A DNA stretch of 64,000 bases from assembly GCA_035605575.1 (NCBI GenBank), contig DASTCJ010000114.1, positions 1,285 through 65,284 of the forward strand. Direction: 5' to 3'. The DNA comes from Candidatus Methylomirabilota bacterium (GTDB lineage Bacteria > Methylomirabilota > Methylomirabilia > Rokubacteriales > CSP1-6). Below, piece after piece: positions 12,584-51,427 of the stretch. How positions within the stretch are numbered: the stretch's first letter is position 1; each line of letters starts with the position of its first letter. The notes beneath the pieces are model-generated. The model ran no database searches and was not told the DNA's origin. It was given only the letters and a program-made list of their open reading frames with translations. Position numbers and translations under genes: made by a program.

Positions 12584-15500
12584 ACCCCGAGCTCTTCATC
12601 CGTCGTCCGGTCCTCACCACGCTGTTGATGGCGGGCATCGTCATCTTCGGCCTCATGGCCTATCAGCTGTTGCCGGTGAGCGACCTGCCGAACGTCGACT
12701 TCCCGACCATCCAGGTGCAGGCCACGCTGCCCGGTGCGAGCCCGGAGACGATGGCGTCGGCGGTGGCCACGCCGCTCGAGAAGCAGTTCACCACGATCGC
12801 CGGCATCGATTCCATGACGTCGACGAGCGCGCTGGGCCTCAGCAACATCACCATCCAGTTCGCGCTCAGCCGGAACATCGATGCCGCCGCGCAGGACGTG
12901 CAGGCGGCCATCACGAAGGCGGCGCCGCTGCTGCCACCGGGCATGCCGACGCCGCCGACGTACCAGAAGGTGAACCCGGCCGACCAGCCGGTGATCTATC
13001 TCTCGGTCAGCTCGCCCACGCTGCCGCTCTATACCGTCGACGAGTACGCGCAGACGAACATCGCCCAGCGCATCTCGACCATCAACGGCGTCGCGCAGGT
13101 GCAGGTGTTCGGCTCGCAGAAGTACGCCGTGCGCGTCCAGGTCGATCCCCGCGCGCTCGCCTCGCGCGGCATCGGCATCGACGAGGTACAGCAGGCCATC
13201 GCGCGCTCCAACGTGAACAAGCCGACGGGGACGCTCTACGGGCCGCACCAGGCGTTCAACGTGCAGGCCACCGGCCAGCTGCTCGATGCCGCCGCCTACC
13301 GCTCCATGGTCGTCACCTATCGCAACGGCTCGCCGGTGCGGCTGGAGGAGATCGGTCGCGTCATCGACGGTGTGCAGACGGACAAGGTGGCGAGCTGGTA
13401 CAACAAGGAGCGCGCGGTCGTGCTGGCCATCCAGAAGCAGCCCGGCACGAACAGCGTCCAGGTCGTGGACTCCATCCGCGCGCTGCTGCCGACCTTTCGC
13501 ATGCAGATCCCCGCGTCGGTCAGCATCAACGTGCTCTACGATCGCTCGGCGGCGATCCGCGAGTCGGTGCACGACGTGCAGTTCACCCTCGGCCTCACCA
13601 TCGCGCTGGTGGTGATGGTGATCTTCATCTTCCTGCGCAACGTCTCGGCGACCATCATCCCGAGCCTGGCGGTGCCGCTGTCGATCGTGGGGACGTTCGG
13701 CGTCATGTACCTGCTCAACTACACGATCGACATCATCTCGCTCATGGCGCTCACGCTCTGCGTCGGCTTCGTGGTCGACGATGCGGTGGTGATGCTCGAG
13801 AACATCGTTCGCCACATGGAGCAGGGGAAGGGCCGGATGGAGGCCGCCCTCATCGGCTCGCGCGAGATCGGGTTCACGATCCTGTCGATGACGGTGTCGC
13901 TGGCCGCCGTGTTCATTCCGGTTCTCTTCATGGGCGGCGTGGTCGGCCGACTGCTCCACGAGTTCGCGGTCGTCATCGGGGTGGCCGTCGTCGTGTCCGG
14001 CATCGTCTCGCTCTCGTTGACGCCGATGCTCTGCAGCCGCTTCTTGAAGGAGCCGTCCCGCTCGCACGGCGCTCTCTATCGTGCCTCCGAGCGCTTCTTC
14101 GACGGCATGCTGCGCACCTACGACGTGAGCCTGCGCTGGGTGCTGCGCCATCGCGTCTTTACGCTGCTGGTGCTCGTCCTGACGTTCGTGCTCACCGCCG
14201 TGCTGGCGATGCGGATTCCGAAGGGGTTCATCCCCAATGAGGACACCGGCCAGATCTTCGCGTTCACTGAGGCCGCGCAGGACGTGTCCTTCGACGCGAT
14301 GGTGGCCCGCCAGCGGGCCGCGGCCGAGATCGTGAGCCAGCAGCCGTACGTGGAGCAGTTCATGTCCGCCGTCGGGGCGGGTGGCTCCGGCGTGGTGCCC
14401 AACACGGGCCGGCTCTTCATCCGACTCAAGCCGCACGCCCAGCGGCCGCACGTCGAACAGGTCATCGAGGACCTGCGACCAAAGCTGGCCGCGGTGCCGG
14501 GCCTGCGCGTGTATCCGCAGAACCTGCCGACCATCCGAATCGGCGGAAACCTCACCAAGGCCGTCTATCAGTTCACGCTGCAGGACACCGACCTGAAGTC
14601 GTTGTACCACTGGGCCCCGGTGATTTTCGAGCGGATCCGACAGCTCCCGGCCCTTCAGGACGTGAACACCGATCTGCAGATCGCCAGCCCGCAGGTGATC
14701 GTGGACATCGATCGCGCCAAGGCGGCGTCGCTCGGCGTGACGGCCGAGCAGATCGAGAGCGCGCTCGGCAACGCGTATGGCGCGCAGCAGGTCTCGACGA
14801 TCTACACGCCTTCGAACCAGTACTGGGTCATTCTCGAGGTCGACCCGAAGTATCAGCGCGATCCGGCGGCCCTCTCACTGCTGTACGTGCGCGCGTCCAC
14901 GGGCAAGCTCGTGCCGCTCAACACGGTGGCCACACTCCGCGAATCGCTGGGTCCGCTGACGGTGAATCACCTCGGGCAGCTGCCGTCGGTGACGATCTCG
15001 TTCAACACGCGGCCCGGCGTGTCGCTGAGCGACGCCGTCGGCCAGGTCGAGAGCGTCATGCGCGAGCTGAGGCCGCCCGCCACGCTGGCGACGTCGTTCC
15101 AGGGCGCCGCGCAGGCGTTCCAGGATTCGCTCCGCGGCCAGGGGATGCTGCTGCTGGCGACGGTGGTGGTGATCTATCTCATCCTCGGCATCCTGTACGA
15201 GAGCTTCGTCCACCCGCTCACGATCCTGTCCGGCCTCTTGCCGGCGGGTGTCGGCGCCCTGGCCGCGCTGACCCTGTTCGGCATGGAGCTGAACATCTAC
15301 GGCTTCGTCGGCATGATCATGCTGGTCGGCATCGTGAAGAAGAACGCGATCATGATGATCGACTTCGCGATCGACGCCGAGCGTGCCGGCGCCAAGCCCG
15401 CGGATGCCATCTATCAAGGATGTCTGCTGCGCTTCCGGCCGATCATGATGACCACCATGGCCGCGCTGTTCGGGACGCTACCCATCGCGCTCGGGATCGG

Positions 15501-15687
15501 CGCCGGCGCCGACGCGCGCCGGCCGCTCGGCATCGCGGTGGTGGGGGGGCTGCTCGTCTCGCAGCTGCTGACGCTCTACATCACGCCGGTGCTCTACATC
15601 GCGCTCGAATCCGCGCAGCGCTTCCTCGCCCGGCATGCGGTGTCGCGCGTCTTCTTCTGGCGGCGCACCGTCCCCGCGCACAGCTGA
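12580..15687 (+). CDS. efflux RND transporter permease (AcrB/MexB/MdtB-type)
   Basis: 1035-aa ORF with a typical N-terminus (FIRRPVLTTLLMAGIVIFG) and 12-TM organisation. GTGA overlap with the adaptor gene. Confidence 0.95.
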   Translation: MNPELFIRRPVLTTLLMAGIVIFGLMAYQLLPVSDLPNVDFPTIQVQATLPGASPETMASAVATPLEKQFTTIAGIDSMTSTSALGLSNITIQFALSRNIDAAAQDVQAAITKAAPLLPPGMPTPPTYQKVNPADQPVIYLSVSSPTLPLYTVDEYAQTNIAQRISTINGVAQVQVFGSQKYAVRVQVDPRALASRGIGIDEVQQAIARSNVNKPTGTLYGPHQAFNVQATGQLLDAAAYRSMVVTYRNGSPVRLEEIGRVIDGVQTDKVASWYNKERAVVLAIQKQPGTNSVQVVDSIRALLPTFRMQIPASVSINVLYDRSAAIRESVHDVQFTLGLTIALVVMVIFIFLRNVSATIIPSLAVPLSIVGTFGVMYLLNYTIDIISLMALTLCVGFVVDDAVVMLENIVRHMEQGKGRMEAALIGSREIGFTILSMTVSLAAVFIPVLFMGGVVGRLLHEFAVVIGVAVVVSGIVSLSLTPMLCSRFLKEPSRSHGALYRASERFFDGMLRTYDVSLRWVLRHRVFTLLVLVLTFVLTAVLAMRIPKGFIPNEDTGQIFAFTEAAQDVSFDAMVARQRAAAEIVSQQPYVEQFMSAVGAGGSGVVPNTGRLFIRLKPHAQRPHVEQVIEDLRPKLAAVPGLRVYPQNLPTIRIGGNLTKAVYQFTLQDTDLKSLYHWAPVIFERIRQLPALQDVNTDLQIASPQVIVDIDRAKAASLGVTAEQIESALGNAYGAQQVSTIYTPSNQYWVILEVDPKYQRDPAALSLLYVRASTGKLVPLNTVATLRESLGPLTVNHLGQLPSVTISFNTRPGVSLSDAVGQVESVMRELRPPATLATSFQGAAQAFQDSLRGQGMLLLATVVVIYLILGILYESFVHPLTILSGLLPAGVGALAALTLFGMELNIYGFVGMIMLVGIVKKNAIMMIDFAIDAERAGAKPADAIYQGCLLRFRPIMMTTMAALFGTLPIALGIGAGADARRPLGIAVVGGLLVSQLLTLYITPVLYIALESAQRFLARHAVSRVFFWRRTVPAHS

Positions 15688-21104: not shown

Positions 21105-21626
21105 TCAGGCTCCGAGCAGCCAGCCGGCTACTCCGGCCACGATGATGACGAGCATGGGCGGCAGCCAGCGCAGGGTCAGCGCTGCCGCCGTGCCGAGCGC
21201 GAGCGCCACCGTCAGCGCGTCGTGGAGCGCGGACTGCGCCAGGGTATACACGCCGGCCGCCATCAAGCCCATGCCCACGGGCGCCAGCGCGTGCTCGATC
21301 GCCTCCGCCCATCGGTGCGCGCGCCAGCGCTGCCAGCGGTCCGCGACGAACATGGCCAGGGCGGACGTCGGCAGGAACATGGCGACCGTCGCCACCAGCG
21401 CGCCGGGCACGCCGTGCGCTCGATAGCCGACGAAGGCGGCGATCAACATGTTGGGGCCCGGCGTCAGCTGCGCCAGCGTGTAGCCGTCGACGAACTCGCG
21501 CGAGGTGACCCAGTGATGGTGCGCGACGACCTGGCGGTGCATCTCGGGGATCACGCCCACACCGCCGCCGACGCAGAGCAGGCTCAGCCAGAGGAACGTC
21601 CACGCCATCACCAGCACGTCGGTCAT
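21105..21626 (-). CDS. chromate transporter family protein (short-chain CHR, second half-size paralogue)
   Basis: In-frame ATG at 21626 within track ORF 21105..22169. Sequence: MTDVLVMAWTFLWLSLLCVGGGVGVIPEM...FVDGYTLAQLTPGPN. ATGA overlap with the upstream paralogue. Confidence 0.85.
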   Translation of the reverse strand: MTDVLVMAWTFLWLSLLCVGGGVGVIPEMHRQVVAHHHWVTSREFVDGYTLAQLTPGPNMLIAAFVGYRAHGVPGALVATVAMFLPTSALAMFVADRWQRWRAHRWAEAIEHALAPVGMGLMAAGVYTLAQSALHDALTVALALGTAAALTLRWLPPMLVIIVAGVAGWLLGA

Positions 21627-22129
21627 CTGCGCGGAGCCGGACGGTACAGCCATACGCTCAGCGCCGCGCTGACGACGAGCACGAGCGCGGTGTTGAGACG
21701 CAGCGGGCCAACGGCGGCAAACGTGCCAAACGTGATCACCACCGCCCGCGCGGTCACCAGCACCGGACGCATCAGGCGGATGCTCGTCACCAGCAGCAGA
21801 CCGACCACGGCGGCCGACATGCCGTGCAGCAGTGACACGGCGGTCGGCGCCAGGCCGTGGCCGAAGTAGAGCGTGGCGAGCGTGAGCAGGACGGCGAGAC
21901 CCGGCACGATCACGGCCAGCAGCGCCCAGCCTGCGCCGGGAAATCCGGCGAGGCGATGACCGAGGGTGATGGCGAGATTCGAGACGTTCGGGCCGGGCAA
22001 GAGCTGCGCCAGCGTGTAGTCCTGCACGAACTCCTCGGTGCGAAGCCAGCGCCGCCGGACCACCAGCGCTTCGTAGAAGAAGGCGGCACGCCCGCCGCCG
22101 ATGCTGAGAATTCCAGTCCACGTGAACAC
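21623..22129 (-). CDS. chromate transporter family protein (short-chain CHR, first half-size paralogue)
   Basis: 168-aa ORF: ...LSIGGGRAAFFYEALVVRRRWLRTEEFVQDYTLAQLLPGPN. The N-terminus is probably longer. GGGGAGG (22169-22175) sits 6 nt before an in-frame ATC at 22162. Confidence 0.8.
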   Translation of the reverse strand: MFTWTGILSIGGGRAAFFYEALVVRRRWLRTEEFVQDYTLAQLLPGPNVSNLAITLGHRLAGFPGAGWALLAVIVPGLAVLLTLATLYFGHGLAPTAVSLLHGMSAAVVGLLLVTSIRLMRPVLVTARAVVITFGTFAAVGPLRLNTALVLVVSAALSVWLYRPAPRR

Positions 22130-22196
22130 ACGCGTCAGCAGCGCGAGCGGGATCGGACGGATCGTGCACCTCCCCGGGCGTCGCCCGCGCGCTATC

Positions 22197-23543
22197 TTAC
22201 GCGAGCCACGACAGCAGCGCGGTGGCGAGCATCAGGAAGATGGCCACGCCGACCACATCCTGCAGCGCCGTCTCGAACGGCCCGGCGGTGAGCGCGGGGT
22301 CGAAGCCGAGGCGCTTGGACAGCATCGGGATGAGCGTGCCGGCGATGCCCGAGAGGTTCACCGACACGAACATGGAGCTCGCCACCACCACGCCGAACAT
22401 CAGCGTGCCGTGCCACACGGCGCCGATGATGCCGACCACCACCCCGCACACGGCTCCGATGATCGAGGACGTCTGGATCTGCCGCAGCAACGGCTGCCAC
22501 CAGCGGGCGAGCTGCACGTGGCCGGTGGCGAGGCCGCGGACGACCATCGTGACCGACTGCAGCCCGGTGTTGCCGGAGATGGCCTGGATGACCGGCATGA
22601 ACGACGCGAGCAAGATCACGCGTGCGAGGGTCTGATCGTAGTAGTGGATGATCGCGCCGGCGGCGAGCTCGATGAGGAGCGTGGCCATGACCCACGGCAG
22701 TCGCAGCAGGGCGATGCGGGGCGGTGAGCGCCGCTCCAGCTCCGCGGCATCCGAGCCCGCCAGGCGAAAGATATCTTCGGAGGCCTCTTCGCCGAGCACG
22801 TCGATGACGTCCTCGACGCTGATGGTGCCCAGCAGGCGACGATCCGCGTCCACCACCGGCACGGCCACGAGATCGTACTTCGCCACCACCCGCGCCACGT
22901 CTTCCTGGTCCGTCTCGGCGCTGACACTGACGACGCTCGGCTCGCGGATGGCCCAGACCGGCGTCGTCGGTGCCGCCGTCAACAGCCGGCGCAGCGGCAC
23001 GACGCCGACGAGATGGCCGTGCTGATCCACCACGTAGAGCTCGAAGCCGCGCCCTTCCGGCGCCGACTTGCGGATGCGCTCGATCGCCTCCGCGACGGTC
23101 GCCGACTCCTTCACGGCGACGGCGTTCGGGGACATGAGCCGGCCGGCCGTGTCCTCGGGATATTCGAGCAGCTCCTGCACGTCCTCGGAGTGCTCGTCCT
23201 TCATCAGCTCGAGCAGATTCTCGGCCTGCGCGCTCGGCAGCTCCTCCACGACCTCCGCCGCGTGGTCGGGCGGCATCTGCTCGAGGATGCGCGACACCTC
23301 GACCTGGTCGAGAGCCTGCACGAGATCGAGCAGCGTCTGGTCGTCGAGCTCGGAAAGGACCTCGCCCGCGCGTTGCGGGGTCAGGAGCCGAAAGACGGTC
23401 ACCTGACGCTCGAGCCGTAGATCGCGGAGGATGTGTGCGACGTCGGCGGGGTGGGCGGCGTTCAGGAGATCGATCAGCTTGTGACGATCGCCCTGCTCGA
23501 TGAGCGCGTGGACCGTCTCGAGTCGCCGCGCGCTGTCCTCCAT
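22197..23543 (-). CDS. mgtE: magnesium transporter MgtE
   Basis: 448-aa ORF with an MgtE N-domain, a CBS pair and a TM domain ending ...GFDPALTAGPFETALQDVVGVAIFL. Confidence 0.95.
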   Translation of the reverse strand: MEDSARRLETVHALIEQGDRHKLIDLLNAAHPADVAHILRDLRLERQVTVFRLLTPQRAGEVLSELDDQTLLDLVQALDQVEVSRILEQMPPDHAAEVVEELPSAQAENLLELMKDEHSEDVQELLEYPEDTAGRLMSPNAVAVKESATVAEAIERIRKSAPEGRGFELYVVDQHGHLVGVVPLRRLLTAAPTTPVWAIREPSVVSVSAETDQEDVARVVAKYDLVAVPVVDADRRLLGTISVEDVIDVLGEEASEDIFRLAGSDAAELERRSPPRIALLRLPWVMATLLIELAAGAIIHYYDQTLARVILLASFMPVIQAISGNTGLQSVTMVVRGLATGHVQLARWWQPLLRQIQTSSIIGAVCGVVVGIIGAVWHGTLMFGVVVASSMFVSVNLSGIAGTLIPMLSKRLGFDPALTAGPFETALQDVVGVAIFLMLATALLSWLA

Positions 23544-28122: not shown

Positions 28123-28911
28123 GTGCGAGAGAACAAAGTGAAAGCGATGTGGTCGCGCGGTGAGACGGTCGTGAATGGGTGGCTGGCCATCCCCGCGGGA
28201 TTCTCCGCGGAAGTGGTGGCCCATCAGGGTTTCGACTCGCTGACGATCGACATGCAGCACGGGATCGTCGACTACCAGACGGCCGTCTCGATGCTGCAGG
28301 GCATCTCGACCACGCCGGTCACGCCGCTCGCCCGCGTGCCGTGGAACGATCCCGGCACGATCATGAAGATCCTCGACGCCGGCGCCTATGGCGTCATCTG
28401 TCCGATGATCAACAGCCGTGCGCAGGCGGAGGCGCTCGTCGCCGCGTGCAAGTATCCGCCGCGCGGCTACCGCTCCTACGGCCCGGCGCGGGCGTCGGTG
28501 TACGCCGGCGCCGATTACGCCGAGCGCGCCAACGAGGAGATCATCGTGATGCCGATGATCGAGACGGCCGAGGCGCTCAAGAATCTCGACGCCATTCTGA
28601 GCACGCCCGGCGTCGATGCCATCTACGTCGGTCCGGCGGACCTGAGCCTCGCGCTCGGCTGCAAGCCGCGCCTCGATCAGACCGACGAGCCGGTCGTCGA
28701 AGCGCAGCAGCAGATCGTCGAGGCGTGCAAGCGCCACAACGTCGTGGCCGGCATTCACAACTCCACCGCCGCCTACTCGCTCAAGATGATCGAGATCGGC
28801 TATCGCTTCGTGACGCTCGCCAGCGACACGCGGCACCTTGCCGCCAAGGCAGCGGAAGAGGTCGGGCTCGTGCGCAAGGGCACCGGCGGCGCCAAGCTGC
28901 CCGCCTATTAG
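28123..28911 (+). CDS. HpcH/HpaI family aldolase
   Basis: Track ORF 28078..28911. GTG at 28123 follows GGGAGAG. Blocks: DSLTIDMQHG, PLARVPWNDP, VMPMIETAEAL, YVGPADLS. Confidence 0.9.
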   Translation: MRENKVKAMWSRGETVVNGWLAIPAGFSAEVVAHQGFDSLTIDMQHGIVDYQTAVSMLQGISTTPVTPLARVPWNDPGTIMKILDAGAYGVICPMINSRAQAEALVAACKYPPRGYRSYGPARASVYAGADYAERANEEIIVMPMIETAEALKNLDAILSTPGVDAIYVGPADLSLALGCKPRLDQTDEPVVEAQQQIVEACKRHNVVAGIHNSTAAYSLKMIEIGYRFVTLASDTRHLAAKAAEEVGLVRKGTGGAKLPAY

Positions 28912-28912
28912 C

Positions 28913-29530
28913 GTGCGCCTGGACGAGGCGCTTCGAGCCCGCGCGCGCCAGCATCTCGAGCGCTTTGCCCGTCGTGCGTGTGCCGCCGATGGGCGCCGAG
29001 CGGCAGCCGTGGCGCTCGTGCTCCTCGCCGACGAGACCGGCGAAGCCGGGCTGCTCATCACGCGGCGCGCGGCCAGCCTGCGGCGGCACGCGCGGCAGTG
29101 GGCGCTGCCGGGCGGTCGCGTGGATCCGGGCGAATCCCCGGAGCACGCCGCGCTGCGCGAGCTCGCGGAGGAAGTCGATCTGCGACTGCCGCCGGACGCG
29201 GTGCTCGGACTGTTGGACGACTATCCGACGCGCTCGGGATTCGTGATCACGCCGGTCGTGGTGTGGGGAGGCGCCGGCGCCACGCTCACGCCGAATCCGG
29301 CCGAGGTCGCCTCCGTGCACCATGTGCCGTTGCGTGAGCTCGAGCATCCCGGCATCCCGACGCTCGTGTCGATTCCCGAGAGCGAACGACCAGTGATCCA
29401 GCTCCCGATTCTGTCGACGCTGGTGCACGCGCCGACGGCCGCCGTCGTCTATCAGCTCCGTGAGGTCGTCGTGCACGGCCGCCCGACGCGCGTCGACCAC
29501 TTCGAGCAGCCCGTGTGGGCGTGGGCCTGA
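28913..29530 (+). CDS. NUDIX hydrolase (CoA pyrophosphatase-like)
   Basis: In-frame GTG 2 nt after the upstream stop. NUDIX box: GGRVDPGESPEHAALRELAEEVDL. Confidence 0.85.
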   Translation: MRLDEALRARARQHLERFARRACAADGRRAAAVALVLLADETGEAGLLITRRAASLRRHARQWALPGGRVDPGESPEHAALRELAEEVDLRLPPDAVLGLLDDYPTRSGFVITPVVVWGGAGATLTPNPAEVASVHHVPLRELEHPGIPTLVSIPESERPVIQLPILSTLVHAPTAAVVYQLREVVVHGRPTRVDHFEQPVWAWA

Positions 29531-29609
29531 TAGAACGGAGCCGGCGCCCGCCTCTCTCAGGCCACCGGCGGAGAATGCGGACACAGCGCTCCGATACAGG
29601 AGGAACGCG

Positions 29610-30650
29610 ATGCTGACGATCATCGACGCCGGACGTGCGGTCGACGTGGACGCGCGCGTGGAAGGTGAGCGCCTGCTGCTGTCTCCGGACGCCGTCCGCG
29701 ACGCGCTCGGCTGGGAGCTTCACGAAGGGACGCTCTGCAACGACGCGATGTGCGTGCCGCTGCCGGCCGGGTCCTCGCTCGCGTCGGGCGGGGCGCTCGA
29801 CCTGAGCGAGCTCGCGCGCGTGCTCGATCGGCCGCTCGCCCTCGACGTCGGTGAGGGTGCCGCCTATCTCGGCGCCTCCGCGCGCGAGCGCGCCGACGCG
29901 CTGTCGAGCCTGATCGCACCGGACTTCACGCTGCCCGATCTCGCGGGCCGTCGGCACTCCCTCGCCGAGCAGCGGGGCCAAAAGGTCTTGCTCGTCGTCT
30001 GGGCCTCCTGGTGAGGGTGCCGCGTCGACCTGCCCGTGTGGCAGGCGCTCTACACGGAGCTGAAGGACCAGCGGTTCACCGTCATCACCGTCGCGCTCGA
30101 CAAGAGCATCGATGATGCCCGTCCGTGGATCGAGAAGGCGGCTCCACGTCATCCCGCGCTGATCGACACCAACCACGTGGTGGCCGACCTCTACAACGTC
30201 GTGAACGTGCCGACCGTGCTCTGGATCGACGAGCGCGGCCGCATCGTGCGTCCGAACGACGTCGTCTTCGGGACCGACACGTTCAAGCACATCACCGGCC
30301 TCGAGTCCGCCAAGCCGCTCGCCGCCATCCGCGCCTGGGTCGGTGGCGCGACGGCCGGCTACCCGCCTGCCGAGGCCCGCGCGCTCCAGGCGCTCCCGAC
30401 GCCGGCCGATCAGCAGGCGCGTGCGGAGTTCGGACTCGCCGAATGGCTCGCGCGCGGCGGCCGCCTGGCTGCCGCCGAGCGCCACTTCGTGCGGGCCGGG
30501 GAGCTTGCGCCGCACGACTTCACCATCCGCCGCGGCTCCATGCCGATCCGCGGTCTGGACCCGATGGGCCCGAAGTTCCATGAGATGCGCGACGCCTGGG
30601 TCGGCGCCGGCCATCCTTATTACAAGCCCCTGCCCGACAGTCGTGGCTAA
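29610..30650 (+). CDS. TlpA/ResA-like thioredoxin-fold protein with in-frame UGA (30012-30014) read as probable selenocysteine (W-A-S-W-U-G-C)
   Basis: Track ORFs 29460..30014 and 30036..30650 share one frame, and a single TGA sits at the catalytic Cys position. AGGAGG lies 5 nt before ATG 29610. The sequence downstream continues the thioredoxin fold (CRVDLP..., NVPTVLWIDERGRIV). A SECIS-like hairpin follows. Confidence 0.7.
30026..30047 (+). promoter_or_regulatory. SECIS-like stem-loop 11 nt downstream of the UGA
   Basis: Structure: CG-A(bulge)-CCUGCC, loop CGUGU, GGCAGG-CG. That is 8 bp with a bulged A and G-U in the apical loop. Confidence 0.5.
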
Positions 30651-31125
30651 GACCGTGCTGCTCGTCTGCCACGGCAACACGTGTCGCAGCGTGATGGCGC
30701 AGGCGCTGCTCGAAAAGATGCTGGCGGAGCGCGGCCTCTCGGACGCCGTGCGGGTGCGCTCGGGCGGTGTTGGCCGCAATGCGCGCGACGGCATGATCCC
30801 GTCGCTCGATGCCCGGATCGTCCTGCGGGAGGACGGCATCGATCTCCGCGAGGACGCGATCACGTCCACCGACCTGCGCCGGCATCGCGAGCTCGTCAGC
30901 GGCGCCGACGTCATCCTGACGATGACGGCCGAGCAGAAGCAGCTGCTCGGCACACTGGCCGACACAGCGCCGCGGCCGGTCTTCACGCTCGCCGAGTTCG
31001 CGGGCGGCGGCGGCGACATCCGCGATCCGATGGGGCAGGACGAGGATCGCTACCGCACGACGCGCGACGAGATCCGCGACTACCTCGAGCGCTCGATCGA
31101 CCGCCTGCTCGCGCTGCTGCGCTGA
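30643..31125 (+). CDS. low-molecular-weight protein-tyrosine phosphatase / ArsC-fold protein
   Basis: In-frame GTG within track ORF 30343..31125. It has a CX5R(S/T) P-loop (VLLVCHGNTCRSVMA) and a later IRDPMG. It overlaps the previous gene by 8 nt. Confidence 0.85.
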   Translation: MAKTVLLVCHGNTCRSVMAQALLEKMLAERGLSDAVRVRSGGVGRNARDGMIPSLDARIVLREDGIDLREDAITSTDLRRHRELVSGADVILTMTAEQKQLLGTLADTAPRPVFTLAEFAGGGGDIRDPMGQDEDRYRTTRDEIRDYLERSIDRLLALLR

Positions 31126-34839: not shown

Positions 34840-35110
34840 ATCGCCATGGTACTCACACGCCGCCAGCACGGCGCGTGCGGGCGGCTCTCACGTATATCAA
34901 TGTCGGCACGTTGACGTCGTTTGCGCGACGGAGCCATGCTCGAGGCTCGGACGGGCCGGTGCACGCGCCGCGCCTCGCTAACTCGCCGAAATCACAGGCG
35001 CGTGTCAACTCGGCCAAAAAGCTTGGTCCCGATGCCGCCGTCACCGTACGCTCGAATTCGTCCATTGATGTCGCGCGCATGCGCGGACCAGGCCGCCCAG
35101 AGGAGTGGCC

Positions 35111-36190
35111 ATGGCACGGCTCGACGCCTTCTTCAAGCTGATGTTCGATTCCGGTGCGTCCGACCTGCACATCACTTCGGGTCAGCCGCCGATCCTGCGC
35201 GTGCACGGAGAGCTGGAGCGCGTGAAGTACGACCCCATGGACGACGAGACGCTCCGCGCGATGCTCTACGAGATCGCCCCGGAGCAGAAGATCAAGCAGT
35301 TCGAGGAAACGGGCGATGTCGACTTCGGCTACGAGATCCCCGGCGTCGCGCGCTTCCGCGCCAACTACTTCATGCAGAAGTACGGTTGCGGCGCCGTCTT
35401 CCGCCAGATCCCGACCAAGATCCTGACGGCCGACGAGCTGGGGTTGCCGCCGATCCTGAAGAAGAGCGCGATGCTGCACAAGGGCCTCGTGCTCGTCACC
35501 GGTCCGACGGGCTCCGGCAAGTCGACGACGCTGGCCGCGGTCCTCGATCACGCCAACAAGCACCGCAAGGACCACATCATCACCATCGAGGACCCGATCG
35601 AGTTCGTGCACCAGAGTCAGGGCTGCCTCATCAATCAGCGCGAGGTCCACATGCACACCAAGTCCTTCGCGGCTGCGCTTCGCGGCGCGCTGCGTGAGGA
35701 CCCGGACATCATCCTCGTCGGTGAAATGCGCGACCTCGAGACGATCCGCCTCGCGCTCGAGGCGTCGAACACCGGTCACCTCGTCTTCGGCACCCTGCAC
35801 ACGACGAGCGCGGCCAAGACCATCGACCGTGTGATCGAGGTGTTTCCGGCCGAGGAGCAGGCGCAGGTGCGCAACAGCCTGTCGACCGGTCTCAAGGTCG
35901 TGGTCGCGCAAAACCTGTTCAAGCGCGTCGACAAGCGCGGACGGTGCGCGGCCCTCGAGCTGCTCGTGTGCACGGCCGCCGTGGGCAACCTGATCCGCGA
36001 GGGCAAGACCGTCCAGATCCCCTCCGCCATCCAGACCGGCAAGCAGTACGGCATGCAGACGCTCGACGACGCGATCATGGCCGTGCTCCAGAAGGGCTGG
36101 ATCAGCGCCGACGAGGCGTACGACAAGTGCATCGACAAGAACAAGTTCCGGCCGTTGCTGAAGACGGCGCCGGACGAGCTGAACTCCTAA
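35111..36190 (+). CDS. pilT: type IV pilus twitching-motility ATPase PilT
   Basis: AGGAG lies 5 nt before ATG 35111 (the track starts at GTG 35105). Motifs: Walker A GPTGSGKSTT, Walker B DPDIILVGEMRD, His box TGHLVFGTLHT, and the PilT motif AVGNLIREGK. Confidence 0.95.
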   Translation: MARLDAFFKLMFDSGASDLHITSGQPPILRVHGELERVKYDPMDDETLRAMLYEIAPEQKIKQFEETGDVDFGYEIPGVARFRANYFMQKYGCGAVFRQIPTKILTADELGLPPILKKSAMLHKGLVLVTGPTGSGKSTTLAAVLDHANKHRKDHIITIEDPIEFVHQSQGCLINQREVHMHTKSFAAALRGALREDPDIILVGEMRDLETIRLALEASNTGHLVFGTLHTTSAAKTIDRVIEVFPAEEQAQVRNSLSTGLKVVVAQNLFKRVDKRGRCAALELLVCTAAVGNLIREGKTVQIPSAIQTGKQYGMQTLDDAIMAVLQKGWISADEAYDKCIDKNKFRPLLKTAPDELNS

Positions 36191-36200
36191 GGAGCGGGCG

Positions 36201-37379
36201 ATGCGCAAATCAGAGATCGACGACCTGCTCACCACGATGCTCGAATCGCACGACAACGTCTCCGATCTCAACATCACCGTCGAACGGCCACTCCAGGTCG
36301 AGACGGCCGGTGAGCTGGTGGCGGTGCCGATCGATCCGGCCGTCGACAGCCTGACGCCGTTCCAGACGGAGATCTTCGCGCTCAACCTCATGAACAACGA
36401 CCGCCGTCTCGCCGAGCACCTCCTCCGGCAGGGCTCGTGCGACTCGTCGTATGCGCTCGCGGGCAAGGCGCGCTTTCGCGTGAACATCTTCTCGCAGCGG
36501 GGCGCCTTCTCGATCGTCCTGCGAAAGCTGGAGACGCAGATTCCGAGCATCGAGGAGTTGAAGCTGCCCGAGGCGTTCAAGAAGATGCCGGCCGAGAAGA
36601 ACGGCCTGATTCTCATCACCGGCGCCACCGGCTCGGGCAAGACGACGTCGCTGGCCGCGCTGCTCAACGAGATCAACAACACCAAGTCGGTGCACGTGGT
36701 GACGCTGGAGGATCCCGTCGAGTACGTGCACCCGCCGCGCAAGGCCACCTTCAACCAGCGCGAGCTGGGTCTCGACTACGACTCGTTCTCGAGCGGCCTG
36801 CGCGCGGCGCTGCGCCAGGCGCCCAAGATCATCCTGGTCGGTGAGATGCGCGATCGTGAGACGGCCGAGCTCGCGCTCAAGGCGTCAGAGACGGGTCACC
36901 TCGTGCTGTCCACGCTCCACACGGTGAACGCGGGCCAGGCCATCGACCGCATCATCGGTATGTTCGACCAGGAAGAGGAGAAGCAGATCCGCCAGCGGCT
37001 CTCGGAAACCGTGCGCTGGATCGTTGGCCAGCGCCTCGTCCCCAAGGTCGGCGGCGGCCGTTGGGCCGTGCACGACATCCTCTGCAACACCATCCGAACC
37101 AACGAGCTGATCCTCACCGGCGAGCACGAGGGCAAGACCTTCTATGAGATCCAGGAAGTCGGCGATCCCTACCACATGATGACCTTCGACCAGGCGCTGC
37201 TGCGCTCGTTCGAGCAGGGCATCATCACCGAGGAGACGGCCGTCGCCTACGCGAGCCGCAAGGCCATCGTGCAGCGCGGCCTCGATCAGACCAAGCAGAA
37301 GCGCGGCGAGAAGACGACGGAGATCGAGGGCCTCCGCCTCGATCCCGACTACAACCGTCGCGTCGGGGTCAAGCGCTAG
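36201..37379 (+). CDS. PilT/PilU-family retraction-type ATPase paralogue
   Basis: 392-aa ORF with GATGSGKTTS, PKIILVGEMRD and TGHLVLSTLHT. It lacks the AIRNLIRE motif and has a C-terminal extension. Confidence 0.9.
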   Translation: MRKSEIDDLLTTMLESHDNVSDLNITVERPLQVETAGELVAVPIDPAVDSLTPFQTEIFALNLMNNDRRLAEHLLRQGSCDSSYALAGKARFRVNIFSQRGAFSIVLRKLETQIPSIEELKLPEAFKKMPAEKNGLILITGATGSGKTTSLAALLNEINNTKSVHVVTLEDPVEYVHPPRKATFNQRELGLDYDSFSSGLRAALRQAPKIILVGEMRDRETAELALKASETGHLVLSTLHTVNAGQAIDRIIGMFDQEEEKQIRQRLSETVRWIVGQRLVPKVGGGRWAVHDILCNTIRTNELILTGEHEGKTFYEIQEVGDPYHMMTFDQALLRSFEQGIITEETAVAYASRKAIVQRGLDQTKQKRGEKTTEIEGLRLDPDYNRRVGVKR

Positions 37380-39999: not shown

Positions 40000-40656
40000 A
40001 TGGTCTTACGAAGAGTGTGCGGACTCGTCGCAGCGGTGCTGACGCTCGGGGCGCTGGTCACGGCTCGACCGGCCTGGGCGGGACCGCCCACCGAGCAACT
40101 GCGGGCGCAGATGGACCGCGTCATCAAGGTGCTCGAAGATCCGGAGCTGAAGCGCGACGGGCGTCAGGCCGAGCGGCGGGCGGCCATCCGTCGCCTGGCC
40201 AACGACATCTTCGACTTTCCGGAGTCGAGCCGGCGCTCGCTCGGGCCGCACTGGAACGCCCGGACGCCGGCCGAGCGTGAGCAATTCGTCAAGCTGTACG
40301 CGGATCTCCTCGAGCGCTCGTATATCGACAAGATCGAGATGTACAGCGGCGAGCGCATCCAGTTCGTCGGCGAGACCATCGAGCGGAATCACGCCACCGT
40401 GCGTACGCGCCTGGTGACGAAGGCGGGGACCGAGACGCCGGTGGACTACCGGATGCACCGTGTCGGTGACCGATGGCTGACCTACGACGTCAACATCGAA
40501 GGCGTCAGCATGGTGGCCAACTACCGCGCGCAGTTCAACAAGATCATCCAGGCCTCGGGCTATGCATCGCTCGTGAGCAAGCTCACCGAGAAGCAGGAGC
40601 AGGGGATCGAGGCCGACCGCGACGGGTCGATCCGCAAGGCGTCGCAGACGAAGTGA
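40000..40656 (+). CDS. mlaC: MlaC/Ttg2D-family periplasmic lipid-binding protein
   Basis: Internal ATG after GGGAGGG, with a signal peptide. Sequence: FDFPESSRRSLGPHWNARTPAEREQFVKLYADLLERSY...WLTYDVNIEGVSMVANYRAQF. Confidence 0.85.
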   Translation: MVLRRVCGLVAAVLTLGALVTARPAWAGPPTEQLRAQMDRVIKVLEDPELKRDGRQAERRAAIRRLANDIFDFPESSRRSLGPHWNARTPAEREQFVKLYADLLERSYIDKIEMYSGERIQFVGETIERNHATVRTRLVTKAGTETPVDYRMHRVGDRWLTYDVNIEGVSMVANYRAQFNKIIQASGYASLVSKLTEKQEQGIEADRDGSIRKASQTK

Positions 40657-41594
40657 CGTCGGCGGTTCCGCGCGACATCGCGAGAGGCATCGCCGTCAAT
40701 CTCGCGACCGTCATGCGGGGCCAGGACGTGGCCATCCGGCGGCTGCTGGCCGCGTTTGCCAGCGGCGGGCACGTTCTGCTCGAGGATTATCCCGGCACGG
40801 GAAAGACCACGCTGGCCAAGGCGCTCGCCCGGTCGATCGGCGCCTCGTTCAAGCGCATCCAGTTCACGCCCGATCTCTTGCCCTCGGATATTCTCGGCGT
40901 CTCGATCTACGACCAGCGCGAGCATACCTTTCGCTTCTTCGAGGGCCCCATCTTCACCCACGTGCTGCTCGCCGACGAGATCAACCGCGCGTCACCGCGC
41001 ACGCAGTCGGCGCTGCTGGAGGCGATGGGCGAGGGCCAGGTCACCGTCGACGGCACCTCGTATCGATTGCCCGATCTCTTCTTCGTGATCGCGACCCAGA
41101 ACCCGGTGGAGTTTCGCGGCACCTATCCGCTGCCCGAGGCGCAGATGGATCGCTTCGCCGTCCAGTTCGGCCTCGGCTACGTCGACCCGGACGAGGAAGT
41201 CGCGATCATCGCGGCCCAGGAGCAACGCCATCCGATCGAGGACCTCGGCGCCTGCGCCACGCTCGACGACGTGCTGGCCCTGCGGCGGGCCGCGCGCGAG
41301 GTGCGCGTGAGCGACGAGCTGCGGCGTTACGTGGTCGACCTCGCCCGCGCGACCCGCCTCACCCCCGGCGTCGTCCTCGGCGCCAGCCCGCGCGCCTCGC
41401 TCGCCCTCATGGCGGCGGCGCAGGCGCTCGCCCTGCTCGACGGTCAGGCGTTCGTCGCGCCCGAGCACGTACAAGAGATGGCGGGTCCCGTGCTCGCGCA
41501 TCGGCTCGCCCTCGACCCGCAGGCCCGATTCGCCGGTCGCACGACGGACGTCGTCGTCGAGGAGATCCTCAAGACCGTTCCCGTTCCTGCCTGA
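40653..41594 (+). CDS. MoxR-family AAA+ ATPase
   Basis: In-frame GTG (GTGA overlap). Motifs: LLEDYPGTGKTTLAKALA, LLADEINRASPRTQSALLEAM, QNPVEFRGTYPLPEAQMDRF. Confidence 0.95.
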   Translation: MTSAVPRDIARGIAVNLATVMRGQDVAIRRLLAAFASGGHVLLEDYPGTGKTTLAKALARSIGASFKRIQFTPDLLPSDILGVSIYDQREHTFRFFEGPIFTHVLLADEINRASPRTQSALLEAMGEGQVTVDGTSYRLPDLFFVIATQNPVEFRGTYPLPEAQMDRFAVQFGLGYVDPDEEVAIIAAQEQRHPIEDLGACATLDDVLALRRAAREVRVSDELRRYVVDLARATRLTPGVVLGASPRASLALMAAAQALALLDGQAFVAPEHVQEMAGPVLAHRLALDPQARFAGRTTDVVVEEILKTVPVPA

Positions 41595-41597
41595 GCC

Positions 41598-42938
41598 ATG
41601 CTGCGGCGGTTCTTCTACCGCCAGTTCCGGATCGCCTCCCGCGTCTCCTGGGCGCTCGCGCGTCAGCTGACGCCGGCCGGGCGTCTCGTCGTCGGCGCCC
41701 TGCTCACCGCGCTGGTCTTCGGGCCGAACACGCGCCTCACCGTCGGCTACCAGGCGTTCACGTTGCTCGGCGCATTGCTCGCTCTCTCCACCGTCTGGGC
41801 GCTCGTGCCCCCGCCGCGGCTCGACGTCCGGCGCCGGCTACCCCGCTATGCCACGGCCGGTGAGACGGTGATCTACGACGTGGTGCTTCGGAATCGGCGC
41901 GCGCGCGCCGTGGTCGGTCTGTCGATTCTCGAGGACCTCGAGGATCCGCGCCCGACGCTCGCGGATTTTACGCTCGCGTCGGAGCCTCACGAGTCGGAGC
42001 GCAACTGGTTCGATCGCAAGCTCGCGTGGCACCGCTGGGTGTGGCTGCTGGCGCGGAACCGTCGCCTCGACGTCCGAGAGCATACCGTGAGCGAGGTGCC
42101 TTCGGCCGGCGAGGCACGGGTCCGCGTCGAGGCGCTGGCGCGCCGGCGGGGACGCGTCCGCTTTCGCGGACTCACGCTGGCGCGCACCGATCCGCTGGGT
42201 CTCGTCCGCGCGCTCCGCCGCCTCCGCGCACCGGACACGCTGCTCGTGCTGCCGCGCCGTTATCCGGTTCCGGATCTCACGCTGCCGGGAGCTCGGCGCT
42301 ATCAGCCCGGCGGCATCGCGCTCGCGTCTTCCGTCGGCGACTCCGAGGAGTTCGTGTCGCTGCGCGAATATCGTCCCGGCGACCCCCTGAAGCGCATCCA
42401 CTGGCGGTCTTCCGCGCGCCGTGGGCGCGCCGTCGTCCGCGAGCACCAGGATGAGTTCTTCGTCCGCCATGGCCTCGTGCTCGACACGTTCATGCCGCGC
42501 GGGGGCGAGCCGCGGTTCGAGGACGCGGTGGCGGTGGCCGCCTCGTTCGCCGCTGGCGTGCGCGGTCAGGAGGCGCTGCTCGACCTGATGTTCGTCGGAC
42601 CGCAGGCATACGTCTTCACGGCCGGCCGCGGCGTCGGTCAGCTCGAGCGGATGCTCGAGGTACTGGCCGACGTGATGCCGTGTGCCGACGGCTCGTTCGC
42701 GGTGCTGCATCGTCTCGTGGCCGAACGCCATCAGGCGCTCAGCGGTGTCGTGTGCGTGCTGCTCGCCTGGGACGACCAGCGCCGCGGGCTGCTGCAGCAT
42801 CTCCGCGCGCTCGGCGTGCCGGCCCTCGCGCTGCTGGTGACCGGCGCCGATCAGGCGGTCGACGCAGATGAGCTCGCGAGCGAGGGCGTGCGGCGTCTCG
42901 TGCACGACCATATCGCGGAGGGACTGGCCGGCTTGTGA
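41598..42938 (+). CDS. DUF58 domain-containing protein
   Basis: 446-aa ORF with two N-terminal TM helices and the DUF58 signature GDSEEFVSLREYRPGDPLKRIHWRSSAR. Confidence 0.9.
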   Translation: MLRRFFYRQFRIASRVSWALARQLTPAGRLVVGALLTALVFGPNTRLTVGYQAFTLLGALLALSTVWALVPPPRLDVRRRLPRYATAGETVIYDVVLRNRRARAVVGLSILEDLEDPRPTLADFTLASEPHESERNWFDRKLAWHRWVWLLARNRRLDVREHTVSEVPSAGEARVRVEALARRRGRVRFRGLTLARTDPLGLVRALRRLRAPDTLLVLPRRYPVPDLTLPGARRYQPGGIALASSVGDSEEFVSLREYRPGDPLKRIHWRSSARRGRAVVREHQDEFFVRHGLVLDTFMPRGGEPRFEDAVAVAASFAAGVRGQEALLDLMFVGPQAYVFTAGRGVGQLERMLEVLADVMPCADGSFAVLHRLVAERHQALSGVVCVLLAWDDQRRGLLQHLRALGVPALALLVTGADQAVDADELASEGVRRLVHDHIAEGLAGL

Positions 42939-44917
42939 GACCGCCACGCGGGATGATGGGCGCCGCCCTGCTCTTCTGGGGTTGGCAGACCGGCTTTCTC
43001 GTGGCCGCCGTCGCCATGGCGGCCGTCATCGAGGCGCGCTCGCTCATCGACGTGCGCTGGGATCTCTCGCGCAGCGACTTCAATCGCATCTCGGACGTGA
43101 GCGCCGTCCTGCTGGCGCTCATCGCCGTCTACCACGTGCTGGGCAACGACTCCGCGCGCGCCGTGCTGGCGATTCTCCAGTGGCTGCCGCTGATCGTCTT
43201 TCCGCTGGTCGCCTGCCAGCTCTACGGCGCGGCCGGCGTGCTCGACGCCTCCATCTTTCTCTGGAGCTTGCGGCGTCGCGCCAACGCGGAGCCCGACTAC
43301 GCCGGCATGCCGGTCGATCTCGCGTATCCCTTCGTCGCGCTGACCCTGCTCTCCGCCAGCGCCGCCAACGTGCGCTCGGGCTTGTTCTTCGTCGGCTTCG
43401 CCGCCATCACCGTGTGGGCCCTGTGGGGCGTCCGCGCCCGGCGCTATTCCACGCCGGTGTGGCTCGGGATGGTCGCCGCTGCCCTCGCCCTCGGCTGGGC
43501 GGGACAGCTCGGTCTGGCGGCCGGGCAGCGCGCGCTCGAGCGGATGGCGACGGCGTGGTTCGTCGACTATCTCGGACGTGAGGCCGATCCCTACCGAGCG
43601 ACGACGGCGCTCGGCCAGGTTGGCGAGCTGAAGCTCTCGTCGCGGATCCTGCTTCGCGTCGAGACGCCGACGGCGCCGCCGCCCGCCCTCCTGCGCGAGG
43701 CCAGCTACAACATCTACAACGCGCCCACGTGGTACGCGGTCGACGCCCCGTTTCGGCACGTCACGCCCGAGAGCGACGGCGCCACGTGGCGGCTCGCGTC
43801 GCGGACTGCGGAGGCGGGCCCGGTGACGATCGCCGCCTATCTGCGTCGCGGCAAGGGCATGCTGCCCGCGCCGAACGGGACGGTGGAGCTCGCGAACCTG
43901 CTCGTCGTGGAGCTCGCGAGCAATCGGATGGGCGCCATTCGTGTCGAGGAGGGTCTGGGCCTCGTGCGCTATGGCGCTCGCTACGCCGGCGCCGCCGCCG
44001 ATGATCCGCCGACCCGCATGGACGTCGCGGTGCCCCGCAGCGAGGCGCACGCCGTCGGCCGCATCGCCGAGGACCTGCGCCTCTCCCGGCTGGCGCGCCA
44101 CGACGCCGTCGTCGCGGTCCGCGCGTACTTCCGCGACGGGTTTCGATACTCACGGTTCGTGGCCGACAGCGCCGTCGGCACGACCGCGCTCGCCGACTTC
44201 CTCGAGCGAACGCGGCGCGGGCATTGCGAGTACTTCGCCACGGCGACCGTGCTGCTCCTGCGCGCCGCCGGCATTCCGGCCCGCTACGCCGTCGGCTACG
44301 CCGTCCACGAATGGAGCGCGCTCGAGCGGCGTTTCGTCGTCCGCGCCAACGACGCGCACGCGTGGGCGCTCGTCTGGCTCGACGGCGCCTGGCGGGAGCT
44401 GGACACGACGCCGCCCGACTGGGTGGAGGCCGAGCGCGAGGCGGTGAGCCGCTTCACCGTCGGGGACCTGTGGTCGTGGGGCGGTTACCTCTTCGCCCGC
44501 TGGCGCTGGAGCGAGCGCGAGGATCGTCTGACGGGGTCGGTGGGCTGGCTGCTCGTTCCGCTCTTCCTGCTGCTCGGCTGGCGGCTCTACTCGCGGCGAC
44601 GGATTGCGCGTCGCGCCGCGCGCGGGCCGACCGCCGCGCGCGCGATCGCGCGCGGCGCCGACTCGGCGTTCTACGACGTCGAGCGCGCGCTGGCACGGCT
44701 CGCCTTTCCCCGTGCGGCCGCCGAGCCGCTTTCGGTCTGGCTTCGACGTATCACGAGCGCCGGCCTGCCGGACGTCAATACCGCGCGGCTGCCGGCGCTG
44801 CTGGCGCTGCATTACCGGTATCGCTTCGACCCTCTCGGACTGGCTGACGAGGAGCGCGCCCGGCTCGCCGCCGAGGCGGGCTCGTGGCTCACCGAGCATT
44901 CGCGCGAGCCACGCTGA
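42935..44917 (+). CDS. transglutaminase-like membrane protein (TgpA-like, DUF3488 plus transglutaminase core)
   Basis: 660-aa ORF (GTGA overlap) with a polytopic N-terminus. Cys-His-Asp core: RGHCEYFATA, DAHAWALVW, ELDTTP. Confidence 0.9.
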   Translation: MRPPRGMMGAALLFWGWQTGFLVAAVAMAAVIEARSLIDVRWDLSRSDFNRISDVSAVLLALIAVYHVLGNDSARAVLAILQWLPLIVFPLVACQLYGAAGVLDASIFLWSLRRRANAEPDYAGMPVDLAYPFVALTLLSASAANVRSGLFFVGFAAITVWALWGVRARRYSTPVWLGMVAAALALGWAGQLGLAAGQRALERMATAWFVDYLGREADPYRATTALGQVGELKLSSRILLRVETPTAPPPALLREASYNIYNAPTWYAVDAPFRHVTPESDGATWRLASRTAEAGPVTIAAYLRRGKGMLPAPNGTVELANLLVVELASNRMGAIRVEEGLGLVRYGARYAGAAADDPPTRMDVAVPRSEAHAVGRIAEDLRLSRLARHDAVVAVRAYFRDGFRYSRFVADSAVGTTALADFLERTRRGHCEYFATATVLLLRAAGIPARYAVGYAVHEWSALERRFVVRANDAHAWALVWLDGAWRELDTTPPDWVEAEREAVSRFTVGDLWSWGGYLFARWRWSEREDRLTGSVGWLLVPLFLLLGWRLYSRRRIARRAARGPTAARAIARGADSAFYDVERALARLAFPRAAAEPLSVWLRRITSAGLPDVNTARLPALLALHYRYRFDPLGLADEERARLAAEAGSWLTEHSREPR

Positions 44918-50797: not shown

Positions 50798-51387
50798 CAG
50801 CGGATCCGCTCGAGCCGCGGCGGGCGCACGCCATGGCGGATGGCGCCCGCCACCGGCACGTAGTCGAGCTCGCGGCCGGCGCGGACGCAGCGCAGCAGCA
50901 GGCCGCCGCGGCTCATGTCGCCGCGGCCGACGAAGTCGATCGGAAAGCTCAACCGCTCGCCGAAGATGCCGAGCAGCACGCCGACGTACTTGTCGGAGGC
51001 AATGGAGCCGAGCAGGGTGATCGTGTCGTCCGGCTTGAGCAGTGACGCCACCGCGCGCGCCGACTGCTCGAGCGGCCGGCGGTAGCGCGGGTTGGCCGCG
51101 TCGATGTCGACACGTGCGCTCGCGCGCAGCATGCCGAGCGTCACCGGCGCCTCGGCAGGGCGCAGCCCGGCGTCCGGCGTGATGACGAGCGGAACGCCGA
51201 ATGCCTCGGCGTAGGCGAGCTTGCCGCGGAAGTAGAGACCGGACACGAAGCTCATCACCTCGCCGAGGGAAGCCCCGCCCGCCGCGCGCAGTCGACGGGC
51301 GAGGGGGAACGCCGCCCGCGAGGAGAGGAGCAGCTGCGCGCGCTCGCCGCCGCAGTTCGCGGGCGAGAGGAGGAACACGCGGGCCAT
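50797..51387 (-). CDS. hypothetical protein (196 aa), translationally coupled to PolDom
   Basis: Clean ORF: MARVFLLSPANCGGERAQLLL...LLGSIASDKYVGVL...FVGRGDMSRGGLLLR. Its stop shares a base with the PolDom ATG (TGATG). No family recognised. Confidence 0.65.
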   Translation of the reverse strand: MARVFLLSPANCGGERAQLLLSSRAAFPLARRLRAAGGASLGEVMSFVSGLYFRGKLAYAEAFGVPLVITPDAGLRPAEAPVTLGMLRASARVDIDAANPRYRRPLEQSARAVASLLKPDDTITLLGSIASDKYVGVLLGIFGERLSFPIDFVGRGDMSRGGLLLRCVRAGRELDYVPVAGAIRHGVRPPRLERIR

Positions 51388-51427
51388 CGCTCAGCGTGCG
51401 CGCGTGGTCGTCACCGGCGTCGCGCGG

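Follow-up and report, generated by a model that had tools for sequence, protein, structure and literature searches.

Bacterial selenoproteins with a U-G-C redox motif have been described before: Zhang and Gladyshev reported in 2008 a group of 'Prx-like (UGC-containing)' selenoproteins belonging to pfam00578, with 46 selenocysteine (Sec) sequences and 855 cysteine (Cys) homologues, that was commoner in non-marine samples (PMC2398784), and UGC-motif Prx/TlpA-like selenoproteins were catalogued in a 2026 review (PMC13188914). For the bacterial selenocysteine insertion sequence (SECIS), a structural paper on SelB states that the stem has 6-8 bp and that a conserved G in the loop lies ~20 nt downstream of the UGA (PMC4605307). 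Here we describe a gene at positions 29610-30650 of a 64-kb stretch of contig DASTCJ010000114.1 from a Candidatus Methylomirabilota bacterium (69% GC; this whole stretch is called the window, and all coordinates are window positions unless a locus is named). Comparison with its homologues indicates, with a probability that we put at roughly 0.9, that the gene encodes one 346-residue protein in which the UGA at 30012-30014 is decoded as selenocysteine, and that it is a genuine selenoprotein gene forming a sister clade within a kind already catalogued. The window protein resembles the UGC-containing Prx/TlpA-like family in its pfam00578 thioredoxin fold, the single predicted Sec in U-G-C and the many Cys homologues, a likeness that for the published exemplar MDE0950781.1 is drawn from the description of the family; the non-marine abundance of the UGC-containing family also fits the soil and groundwater Rokubacteria. 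Neither PMC2398784 nor PMC13188914 mentions Rokubacteria for this family, and a literature search returned no papers on 'WAxxUGC' and nothing relevant on Rokubacteria combined with selenocysteine or seleno*.

The original prediction for this locus was that two open reading frames (ORFs), 29460..30014 and 30036..30650, lie in one frame, set apart by a TGA plus 21 nt, and that reading through the TGA gives the peptide ...VLLVVWASW-U-GCRVDLPVWQ...; both points held when checked on the sequence and by translation. The whole window was scanned for TGA codons flanked on either side by 60 codons that are free of stops and have coding-type GC content at third positions; two were returned in the 64 kb, at 30012 and 41592. 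TGA 41592-41594 was rejected as a read-through candidate, being an ordinary stop with the ATG of the next gene one codon later; around it, at 40470-44917 on the forward strand, a MoxR-type AAA_3 ATPase, a DUF58 protein and a transglutaminase-like protein are encoded in a row, and the first two share a frame. The feature at TGA 30012-30014 is real and unique within the 64 kb. TGA was also the commonest ordinary stop codon among the window ORFs, most of which terminate with it, so UGA 30012 would represent site-specific recoding and not a reassignment of the codon.

When the read-through protein was used to query a set with one genome for each GTDB species, 75 loci were returned. Most lie in metagenome-assembled genomes (MAGs) under the labels Candidatus Rokuibacteriota, Rokubacteria or Methylomirabilota and are 60-86% identical to the query in amino acids. 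TGA occupied the residue-135 column in 67/67 clade sequences, that is in the window and in 66 species-representative genome loci, ~60 of which were labelled Rokubacteria/Methylomirabilota, 3 carried other labels and 3 were Acidimicrobiales (~48% amino-acid identity). With 3 further TGA forms on metagenome contigs, the TGA carriers span 48-93% amino-acid identity. In a lone sequence, an in-frame stop within a conserved domain would resemble a fresh nonsense mutation, and the locus could then be taken for a pseudogene; the identical TGA, however, recurred in the window, the 66 species-level genomes and the 3 metagenome contigs, and the TGA-bearing genes contained no further stops or frameshifts and had a protein-coding substitution pattern on both sides, which makes the chance of a nonsense-mutated pseudogene negligible.

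Distant homologues from Rhodospirillales, Aquihabitans, Nocardioides and Planctomycetota carried TGC at the UGA column; the Cys-form (TGC) loci were L064, L066, L069 and L073-L080. A search of 5.8 billion protein sequences returned two populations, ~204-residue fragments at 73-93% identity that start just past the TGA and full-length proteins of ~345 residues at 50-60% identity, and no full-length Sec-containing orthologue was found among its top matches. In all full-length homologues the UGA column held Cys as part of an unvarying S-W-C-G-C motif, and conservation extended across the site as far as the C-terminus, so relatives do not end at this codon but continue past it with Cys; the read-through product of 29610-30650 could be aligned end to end with Cys homologues of 340-350 residues. 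That the UGA stands in place of the first redox Cys, as had been proposed, agrees both with these homologues and with the alignment to ResA described below. A TGA retained across species where homologues carry Cys, as seen here for the window and the 66 species, is the usual mark by which selenoproteins are recognised in comparative work, and it rules out a pseudogene.

When the 67 UGA-bearing genes were aligned by codon, 90 degenerate amino-acid columns were at least 95% conserved. Synonymous variation was seen in 83 of these, which lie on both sides of the UGA and include the Gly, Cys and Arg codons that follow the TGA ahead of the annotated GTG start. The stretch between the two ORFs keeps its amino acids while its codons change, and is therefore translated in the frame of the gene. 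The same observation bears on a split gene, in which a 134-residue N-terminal protein would be followed by a separate protein of 204 residues from GTG 30036. Gene callers do yield both ORFs, hundreds of ~204-residue fragments are present in public databases, and some termination product is to be expected since Sec insertion is usually inefficient. A split would nevertheless break the thioredoxin fold apart where its active site lies and leave the downstream piece without both redox residues, the 7 codons from TGA to GTG (G-C-R-x-D-L-P) would have no reason to be conserved in their amino acids as they are, GTG 30036 lacks a ribosome-binding site in a stretch that is occupied by the SECIS stem, and the Cys homologues are single polypeptides. 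We therefore consider a split gene very improbable, and the earlier claims that conservation continues downstream of the UGA and that the downstream ORF is not an independent gene both stand. In the public data searched, Rokubacteria-type orthologues are present as fragments under the names 'hypothetical protein' or 'AhpC/TSA family protein', and this split annotation is a systematic error, in which gene callers divide one gene.

A hairpin at 30026-30047 had also been predicted, and it can form as it was drawn, every base being verified on the sequence; this extended form begins 11 nt past the UGA and its loop nucleotides G30036 and U30037 lie 22-23 nt past it. The 90 nt around the UGA from the 67 genes aligned without gaps, and the segment GACCUGCC-NGUNU-GGCAGG was unchanging in all of them apart from the two N positions. 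All six core stem pairs were identical in 67/67 genes and the loop nucleotides G30036 and U30037 were invariant, and the RNAalifold consensus of the 67 genes was exactly the 6-bp stem 30029-34/30040-45 with a 5-nt loop. The prediction thus held in orthologues for the upper stem and loop and failed for the two lower pairs below the bulged A, which were formed in just 47/67 and 52/67 of them. RNAalifold also drew a 4-bp stem close to the UGA (30009-12/30019-22), which we discarded as uninformative since it is made of invariant Trp, Sec, Cys and Arg codons.

Single-codon columns were rare in the codon alignment (7 of the 90 conserved columns), and three of the seven were stem codons, GAC (30027), CTG (30030) and CAG (30042); the other conserved columns for these amino acids (13 Leu, 8 Asp, 1 Gln) were all polymorphic, and the loop codons CCN and GTN had an entropy of ~1 bit each. 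The stem-closing G30045 opens a codon that encodes Ala, Glu, Gly or Val in different genomes, yet G is kept as its first base throughout. As a control, we compared the 70 Sec forms with nine Cys-form genes in which the encoded D-L-P-V-W-Q peptide is the same. Stem sites deviated in 7/9 Cys forms (GAT, TTG, CTA, CAA) compared to 3/70 Sec forms (Fisher p = 1.4e-6), and the three deviating Sec forms (L081, L083 and L084) had GAU only, with the pair retained as G.U; changes that break a pair were found in 4 of the 9 Cys forms and in none of the 70 Sec forms (p = 8e-5). These comparisons indicate that RNA-level selection acts on the SECIS stem, whose codons are frozen at synonymous sites.

The window hairpin is similar to the canonical SECIS of E. 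coli fdhF and Moorella thermoacetica fdhA, in being an intragenic hairpin just 3' of the UGA that exposes G-U in a small loop at its tip. The apex of the E. coli fdhF and M. thermoacetica SECIS probably matches the majority loop of the clade, GGUCU with a closing C-G pair, and in fdhF the loop G-U probably differs in position, the G-U of the window hairpin being 2 nt closer to the UGA. In contrast to the canonical SECIS, the bulged nucleotide below the window stem is A rather than U, and it lies outside any conserved pairing. The fdhF-like spacing and shape claimed in the original prediction were supported in part: with its 6-bp stem and with loop G30036 at 22 nt from the UGA, the hairpin conforms to what has been published (PMC4605307), but the lower pairing is not conserved. 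By analogy with established bacterial Sec biology, SelB bearing Sec-tRNASec would bind the mRNA hairpin at 30029-30045, with the loop presenting G30036 and U30037, and would hand Sec to a ribosome with the UGA in its A site.

A number of observations weigh against decoding of the UGA as selenocysteine. The stem was without variation in the 67 sequences and compensatory covariation was accordingly nil, for which reason the codon-level synonymous tests and the Cys-form control were used instead, and that control was small at 9 sequences. A 71-nt local fold was no stabler than shuffled sequence (z = -0.22, in 69% GC), and the significance of the hairpin thus comes from comparative data and not from thermodynamics; searches against Rfam gave no match at gathering score across the whole window, and on 29950-30150 at E <= 10 gave noise only (nhaA-I, 10.5 bits). 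The family named in the original prediction, 'ResA-like WAxxUGC motif-containing protein', does exist, as NF041054, and is the best NCBIfam match of the gene, but the score of 238.5 bits (E = 1.2e-70) is below its curated 300-bit cutoff. No tRNA of any kind, and so no tRNA-Sec, was found in the window, and SelA, SelB and SelD were absent among its ~50 ORFs scanned against Pfam, in agreement with what had been noted from the sequence; selA, selB, selD and tRNA-Sec (ARAGORN for the tRNA) were likewise missing beside the gene in the flanks of 60 related loci. An in-frame-TGA scan of ~1.3 Mb of related loci found no second selenoprotein gene. The synteny with a phosphatase gene, described below, belongs to one lineage and is absent from Acidimicrobiales Sec-form and Cys-form loci. 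Finally, the Sec machinery is assumed for this lineage. Two phylum-level papers speak indirectly in its favour: a Methylomirabilota MAG was predicted to have 63 selenoprotein genes (PMC13188914), and Sec-containing hydrogenases were reported from Methylomirabilota (PMC13582414).

The scan of related loci also produced 43 extra in-frame-TGA candidates, which look like adjacent genes sharing a frame. ARAGORN called tRNA-Ala or tRNA-Glu of 90-93 nt at L001:174-263, L003:8783-8872 and L025:6519-6611 (all on the minus strand) and at L034:9360-9449; those in L001 and L003 lie inside the HpcH-aldolase match, those in L025 and L034 lie upstream of the selenoprotein gene by no more than 1.7 kb. Given the GC-rich sequence, all are probably false positives, and none is a tRNA-Sec.

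Alternatively, the UGA and its SECIS might be read as cysteine by a SelC-like tRNA (tRNA-ReC/selC*), giving a protein with C-G-C. Such tRNAs insert Cys at UGA given a SECIS and were found in ~2-17% of genomes in one survey (PMC13582414), the Cys forms of this protein are clearly functional, and the window alone does not separate Sec from Cys insertion. Keeping a costly UGA and SECIS in the window and 66 species just for Cys, which TGC gives, would, however, bring no obvious benefit, and genomes that use Sec normally do so with a canonical tRNA-Sec; the phylum, moreover, is reported as selenoprotein-rich. The window and flanks held no tRNA-ReC, though no tRNA-Sec was present there either. Taken together, we regard Cys insertion as highly unlikely and favour selenocysteine at residue 135.

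The predicted protein has three parts (Table 1). In the central one, Pfam matched residues 103-219 to AhpC-TSA (63.3 bits, cutoff 26) and Redoxin (43 bits), and the motif W-A-S-W-U-G-C occupies residues 131-137; some orthologues have Y or H in place of the W and G in place of the A. ResA was the best solved relative both by sequence (PDB 1st9, phmmer E = 2e-13) and by structure (Foldseek template-modelling [TM] score 0.78-0.85, target-normalised; root-mean-square deviation 1.3-2.0 A), the structural match being made with the AlphaFold model of the Cys homologue P0020 (predicted local distance difference test [pLDDT] 86.7). Like ResA, TlpA, StoA and DsbE (compared through Bacillus subtilis ResA, PDB 1st9/1su9), the window protein has a thioredoxin fold, at ~25% identity, with its redox residues in the same place and the cis-Pro V-P-T conserved. 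Residue by residue, Sec135 falls on the first, attacking Cys of ResA C-E-P-C and Cys137 on the second after a one-residue gap, in line with the prediction that U-G-C is one residue shorter than CxxC. Sec135 would accordingly be the attacking and Cys137 the resolving residue of a thiol/selenol-disulfide oxidoreductase in which a selenolate/thiol pair alternates with a Sec135-Cys137 selenenylsulfide. Unlike ResA and TlpA, which have C-x-x-C and are extracytoplasmic, the window protein has U-x-C, extra N- and C-terminal domains and no signal peptide or membrane anchor; its N-terminus, MLTIIDAGRAVDVDARVEGE..., contains no hydrophobic segment, and the gene product is therefore probably cytoplasmic. 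Scores were far below the family cutoffs for ResA (70.8/170 bits), StoA (47.7/210) and TlpA (46.4/230). A peroxiredoxin (AhpC/TSA, BCP) was also considered and rejected: the P-x-x-x-T/S-x-x-C motif is missing, the context L-L-V-V-W-A-S-W-U-G-C has no Pro or Thr at the required spacing, the BCP model NF006960 reached 25.1/140 bits, and the Pfam AhpC-TSA match is at the level of the domain only.

The thioredoxin fold begins near residue 100, so the N-terminal extension is ~100 residues long and not ~130 as first estimated. The AlphaFold model of this N-terminal domain was confident (pLDDT 92) and had no significant fold match in the PDB, the best being an usher N-domain (E = 0.11, TM < 0.5). An AbrB/MazE-like swapped hairpin, suggested by the motif G-x-R-L-L-L-S-P-x-A-V-R-x-A-L-G-W, was rejected since the model had no AbrB-like match. 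Some Rokubacteria copies (e.g., L038 and L045) are without the N-terminal L-G-W...C-x4-C segment and retain the UGA, the SECIS and the C-terminal domain; a regular-expression tally of 27 short and 41 long N-termini overcounts the short ones, as L031, with T-G-W for L-G-W, is truly long. At the other end, the C-terminal domain carries the conserved motifs Q-x-A-R-A-E-F, A-E-R-H-F, E-L-A-P-x-D-x-T-I-R-R and P-x-R-G, is all-helical in the P0020 model, and in the relative P0015 has precomputed TPR matches in Pfam.

With NF041054 (WAxxUGC_long, an equivalog model), the gene product shares the W-A-x-x-U-G-C motif, a similar length (354 positions against 346 residues) and the N-terminal and thioredoxin parts, but the C-terminal domain of the clade is different or highly diverged. 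The alignment covers profile positions 9-203 of 354 and leaves ~205-354 unmatched, and nine relatives from five lineages, comprising both Sec and Cys forms, scored 198-264 bits with the C-terminal half unmatched in the same way. As this was so in all relatives tested, the clade lies outside NF041054 by the NCBI rule and is best seen as a relative rather than a member.

Table 1. Features of the predicted selenoprotein locus and its neighbours (window coordinates; locus coordinates where a locus is named).
Feature	Position	Strand	Description
NUDIX hydrolase gene	28838..29530	+	Upstream neighbour; Pfam NUDIX 69.7 bits
Ribosome-binding site	29598..29604	+	AGGAGGA, 5 nt before ATG 29610 (read from sequence)
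Complete predicted selenoprotein gene	29610..30650	+	346 codons including Sec135; ATG 29610, stop TAA 30648-30650
N-terminal beta-rich domain	29610..29906	+	Residues 1-99; invariant L-G-W and two invariant Cys
C43	29736-29738	+	Invariant Cys of N-terminal domain
C48	29751-29753	+	Invariant Cys of N-terminal domain
Thioredoxin-fold (ResA/TlpA-like redoxin) domain	29907..30284	+	Residues ~100-225; W-A-S-W-U135-G-C137
In-frame UGA, predicted selenocysteine codon	30012..30014	+	Residue 135; sole interruption of the frame
Cys137	30018..30020	+	Putative resolving partner of Sec135 in U-G-C; TGC 63, TGT 4 (67 sequences)
Extended hairpin	30026..30047	+	Extra pairs C30026-G30047 and G30027-C30046, bulged A30028; optional extension
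Core SECIS hairpin	30029..30045	+	5' arm CCUGCC 30029-34, loop CGUGU 30035-39, 3' arm GGCAGG 30040-45
C-terminal helical domain	30285..30647	+	Residues ~226-346
Low-molecular-weight phosphotyrosine phosphatase gene	30655..31125	+	LMWPc 76.4 bits; P-loop C-H-G-N-T-C-R-S
SDR-like gene, example 1	L015:11051-12046
SDR-like gene, example 2	L038:10717-11832

The phosphatase gene starts 4 nt past the selenoprotein stop and is probably co-transcribed with the selenoprotein gene. In Rokubacteria-type loci the order is HpcH-type aldolase, NUDIX hydrolase, selenoprotein, sometimes an SDR-like gene, and phosphatase; NUDIX was upstream in 52/70 loci, all of them Rokubacteria-type, and the phosphatase downstream in 56/70. 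The SDR-like gene encodes ~330 residues (M-L-D-G-K-T-A-L-V-T-G-A-G-R-G-I-G) and stands between selenoprotein and phosphatase in many loci, though not in the window. Low-molecular-weight phosphotyrosine phosphatases are inactivated by a P-loop disulfide, which makes a dedicated reductant next door plausible. A role for the selenoprotein as dedicated reductant of the adjacent phosphatase in Rokubacteria is the best lead to a substrate, yet a weak one that we consider unlikely to be correct: with the synteny missing from Acidimicrobiales and Cys-form loci, the arrangement may be mere inherited gene order. Three contigs under other labels, L028 (DASRWT010000029.1, Candidatus Nitrosocosmicus sp., archaeal), L035 (Verrucomicrobiia) and L036 (Binatia), carry a Rokubacteria-type copy at 65-69% identity in NUDIX/selenoprotein/phosphatase synteny, and are probably mis-binned.

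Elsewhere in the window, two PilT/T2SSE-type secretion ATPase genes lie in tandem with an overlap of a few bases (35069-37379, +). A LigD primase-polymerase domain protein (49793-51427, -), an AcrB-type RND pump with an HlyD-type adaptor upstream (12499-15687, +), a CopD-like protein (3238-4893, -) and a chromate transporter (21623-22231, -) have no evident link to the selenoprotein.

A rough neighbour-joining tree, without support values, grouped the 67 Sec forms of Rokubacteria and Acidimicrobiales as a single clade and set the metagenomic Sec forms L081 and L083 apart, beside a Cys form. L081, L083 and L084 are JGI metagenome contigs (Ga0310122, Ga0310120 and Ga0256847, respectively) that have U-G-C-R-E-D-L-P and are nearer the Cys-form clade. 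The separate placement of L081 and L083 suggests at least two switches between Cys and Sec. Since the arms of the stem (CUGCC/GGCAG) are encoded by conserved Leu-Pro and Trp-Gln residues, Cys-form genes with the preferred codons already hold most of the hairpin, and such a near-hairpin may ease the switch from Cys to Sec.

More tentatively, the clade could amount to a distinct three-domain selenoprotein subfamily of Rokubacteria and Acidimicrobiales that current models miss, combining a two-Cys N-terminal domain without a recognisable solved fold, a U-G-C redoxin domain and a helical C-terminal domain other than that of NF041054, together with a stem encoded by the peptide and a role in reducing the phosphatase; we think this combined proposal possible, with the odds somewhat against it. 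What is known of Sec decoding is left unchanged by the locus, this kind of selenoprotein having been catalogued since 2008. For annotation, NF041054 would not rescue the split orthologues, as the clade scores below its cutoff, and a lower cutoff or a sister model would correct dozens of genomes. The family also offers a clean natural Sec/Cys pair with a shorter U-x-C motif, which would be useful for comparing selenenylsulfide with disulfide chemistry, and for Rokubacteria, an abundant uncultured lineage of soil and groundwater, it adds a well-supported and near-universal predicted selenoprotein.

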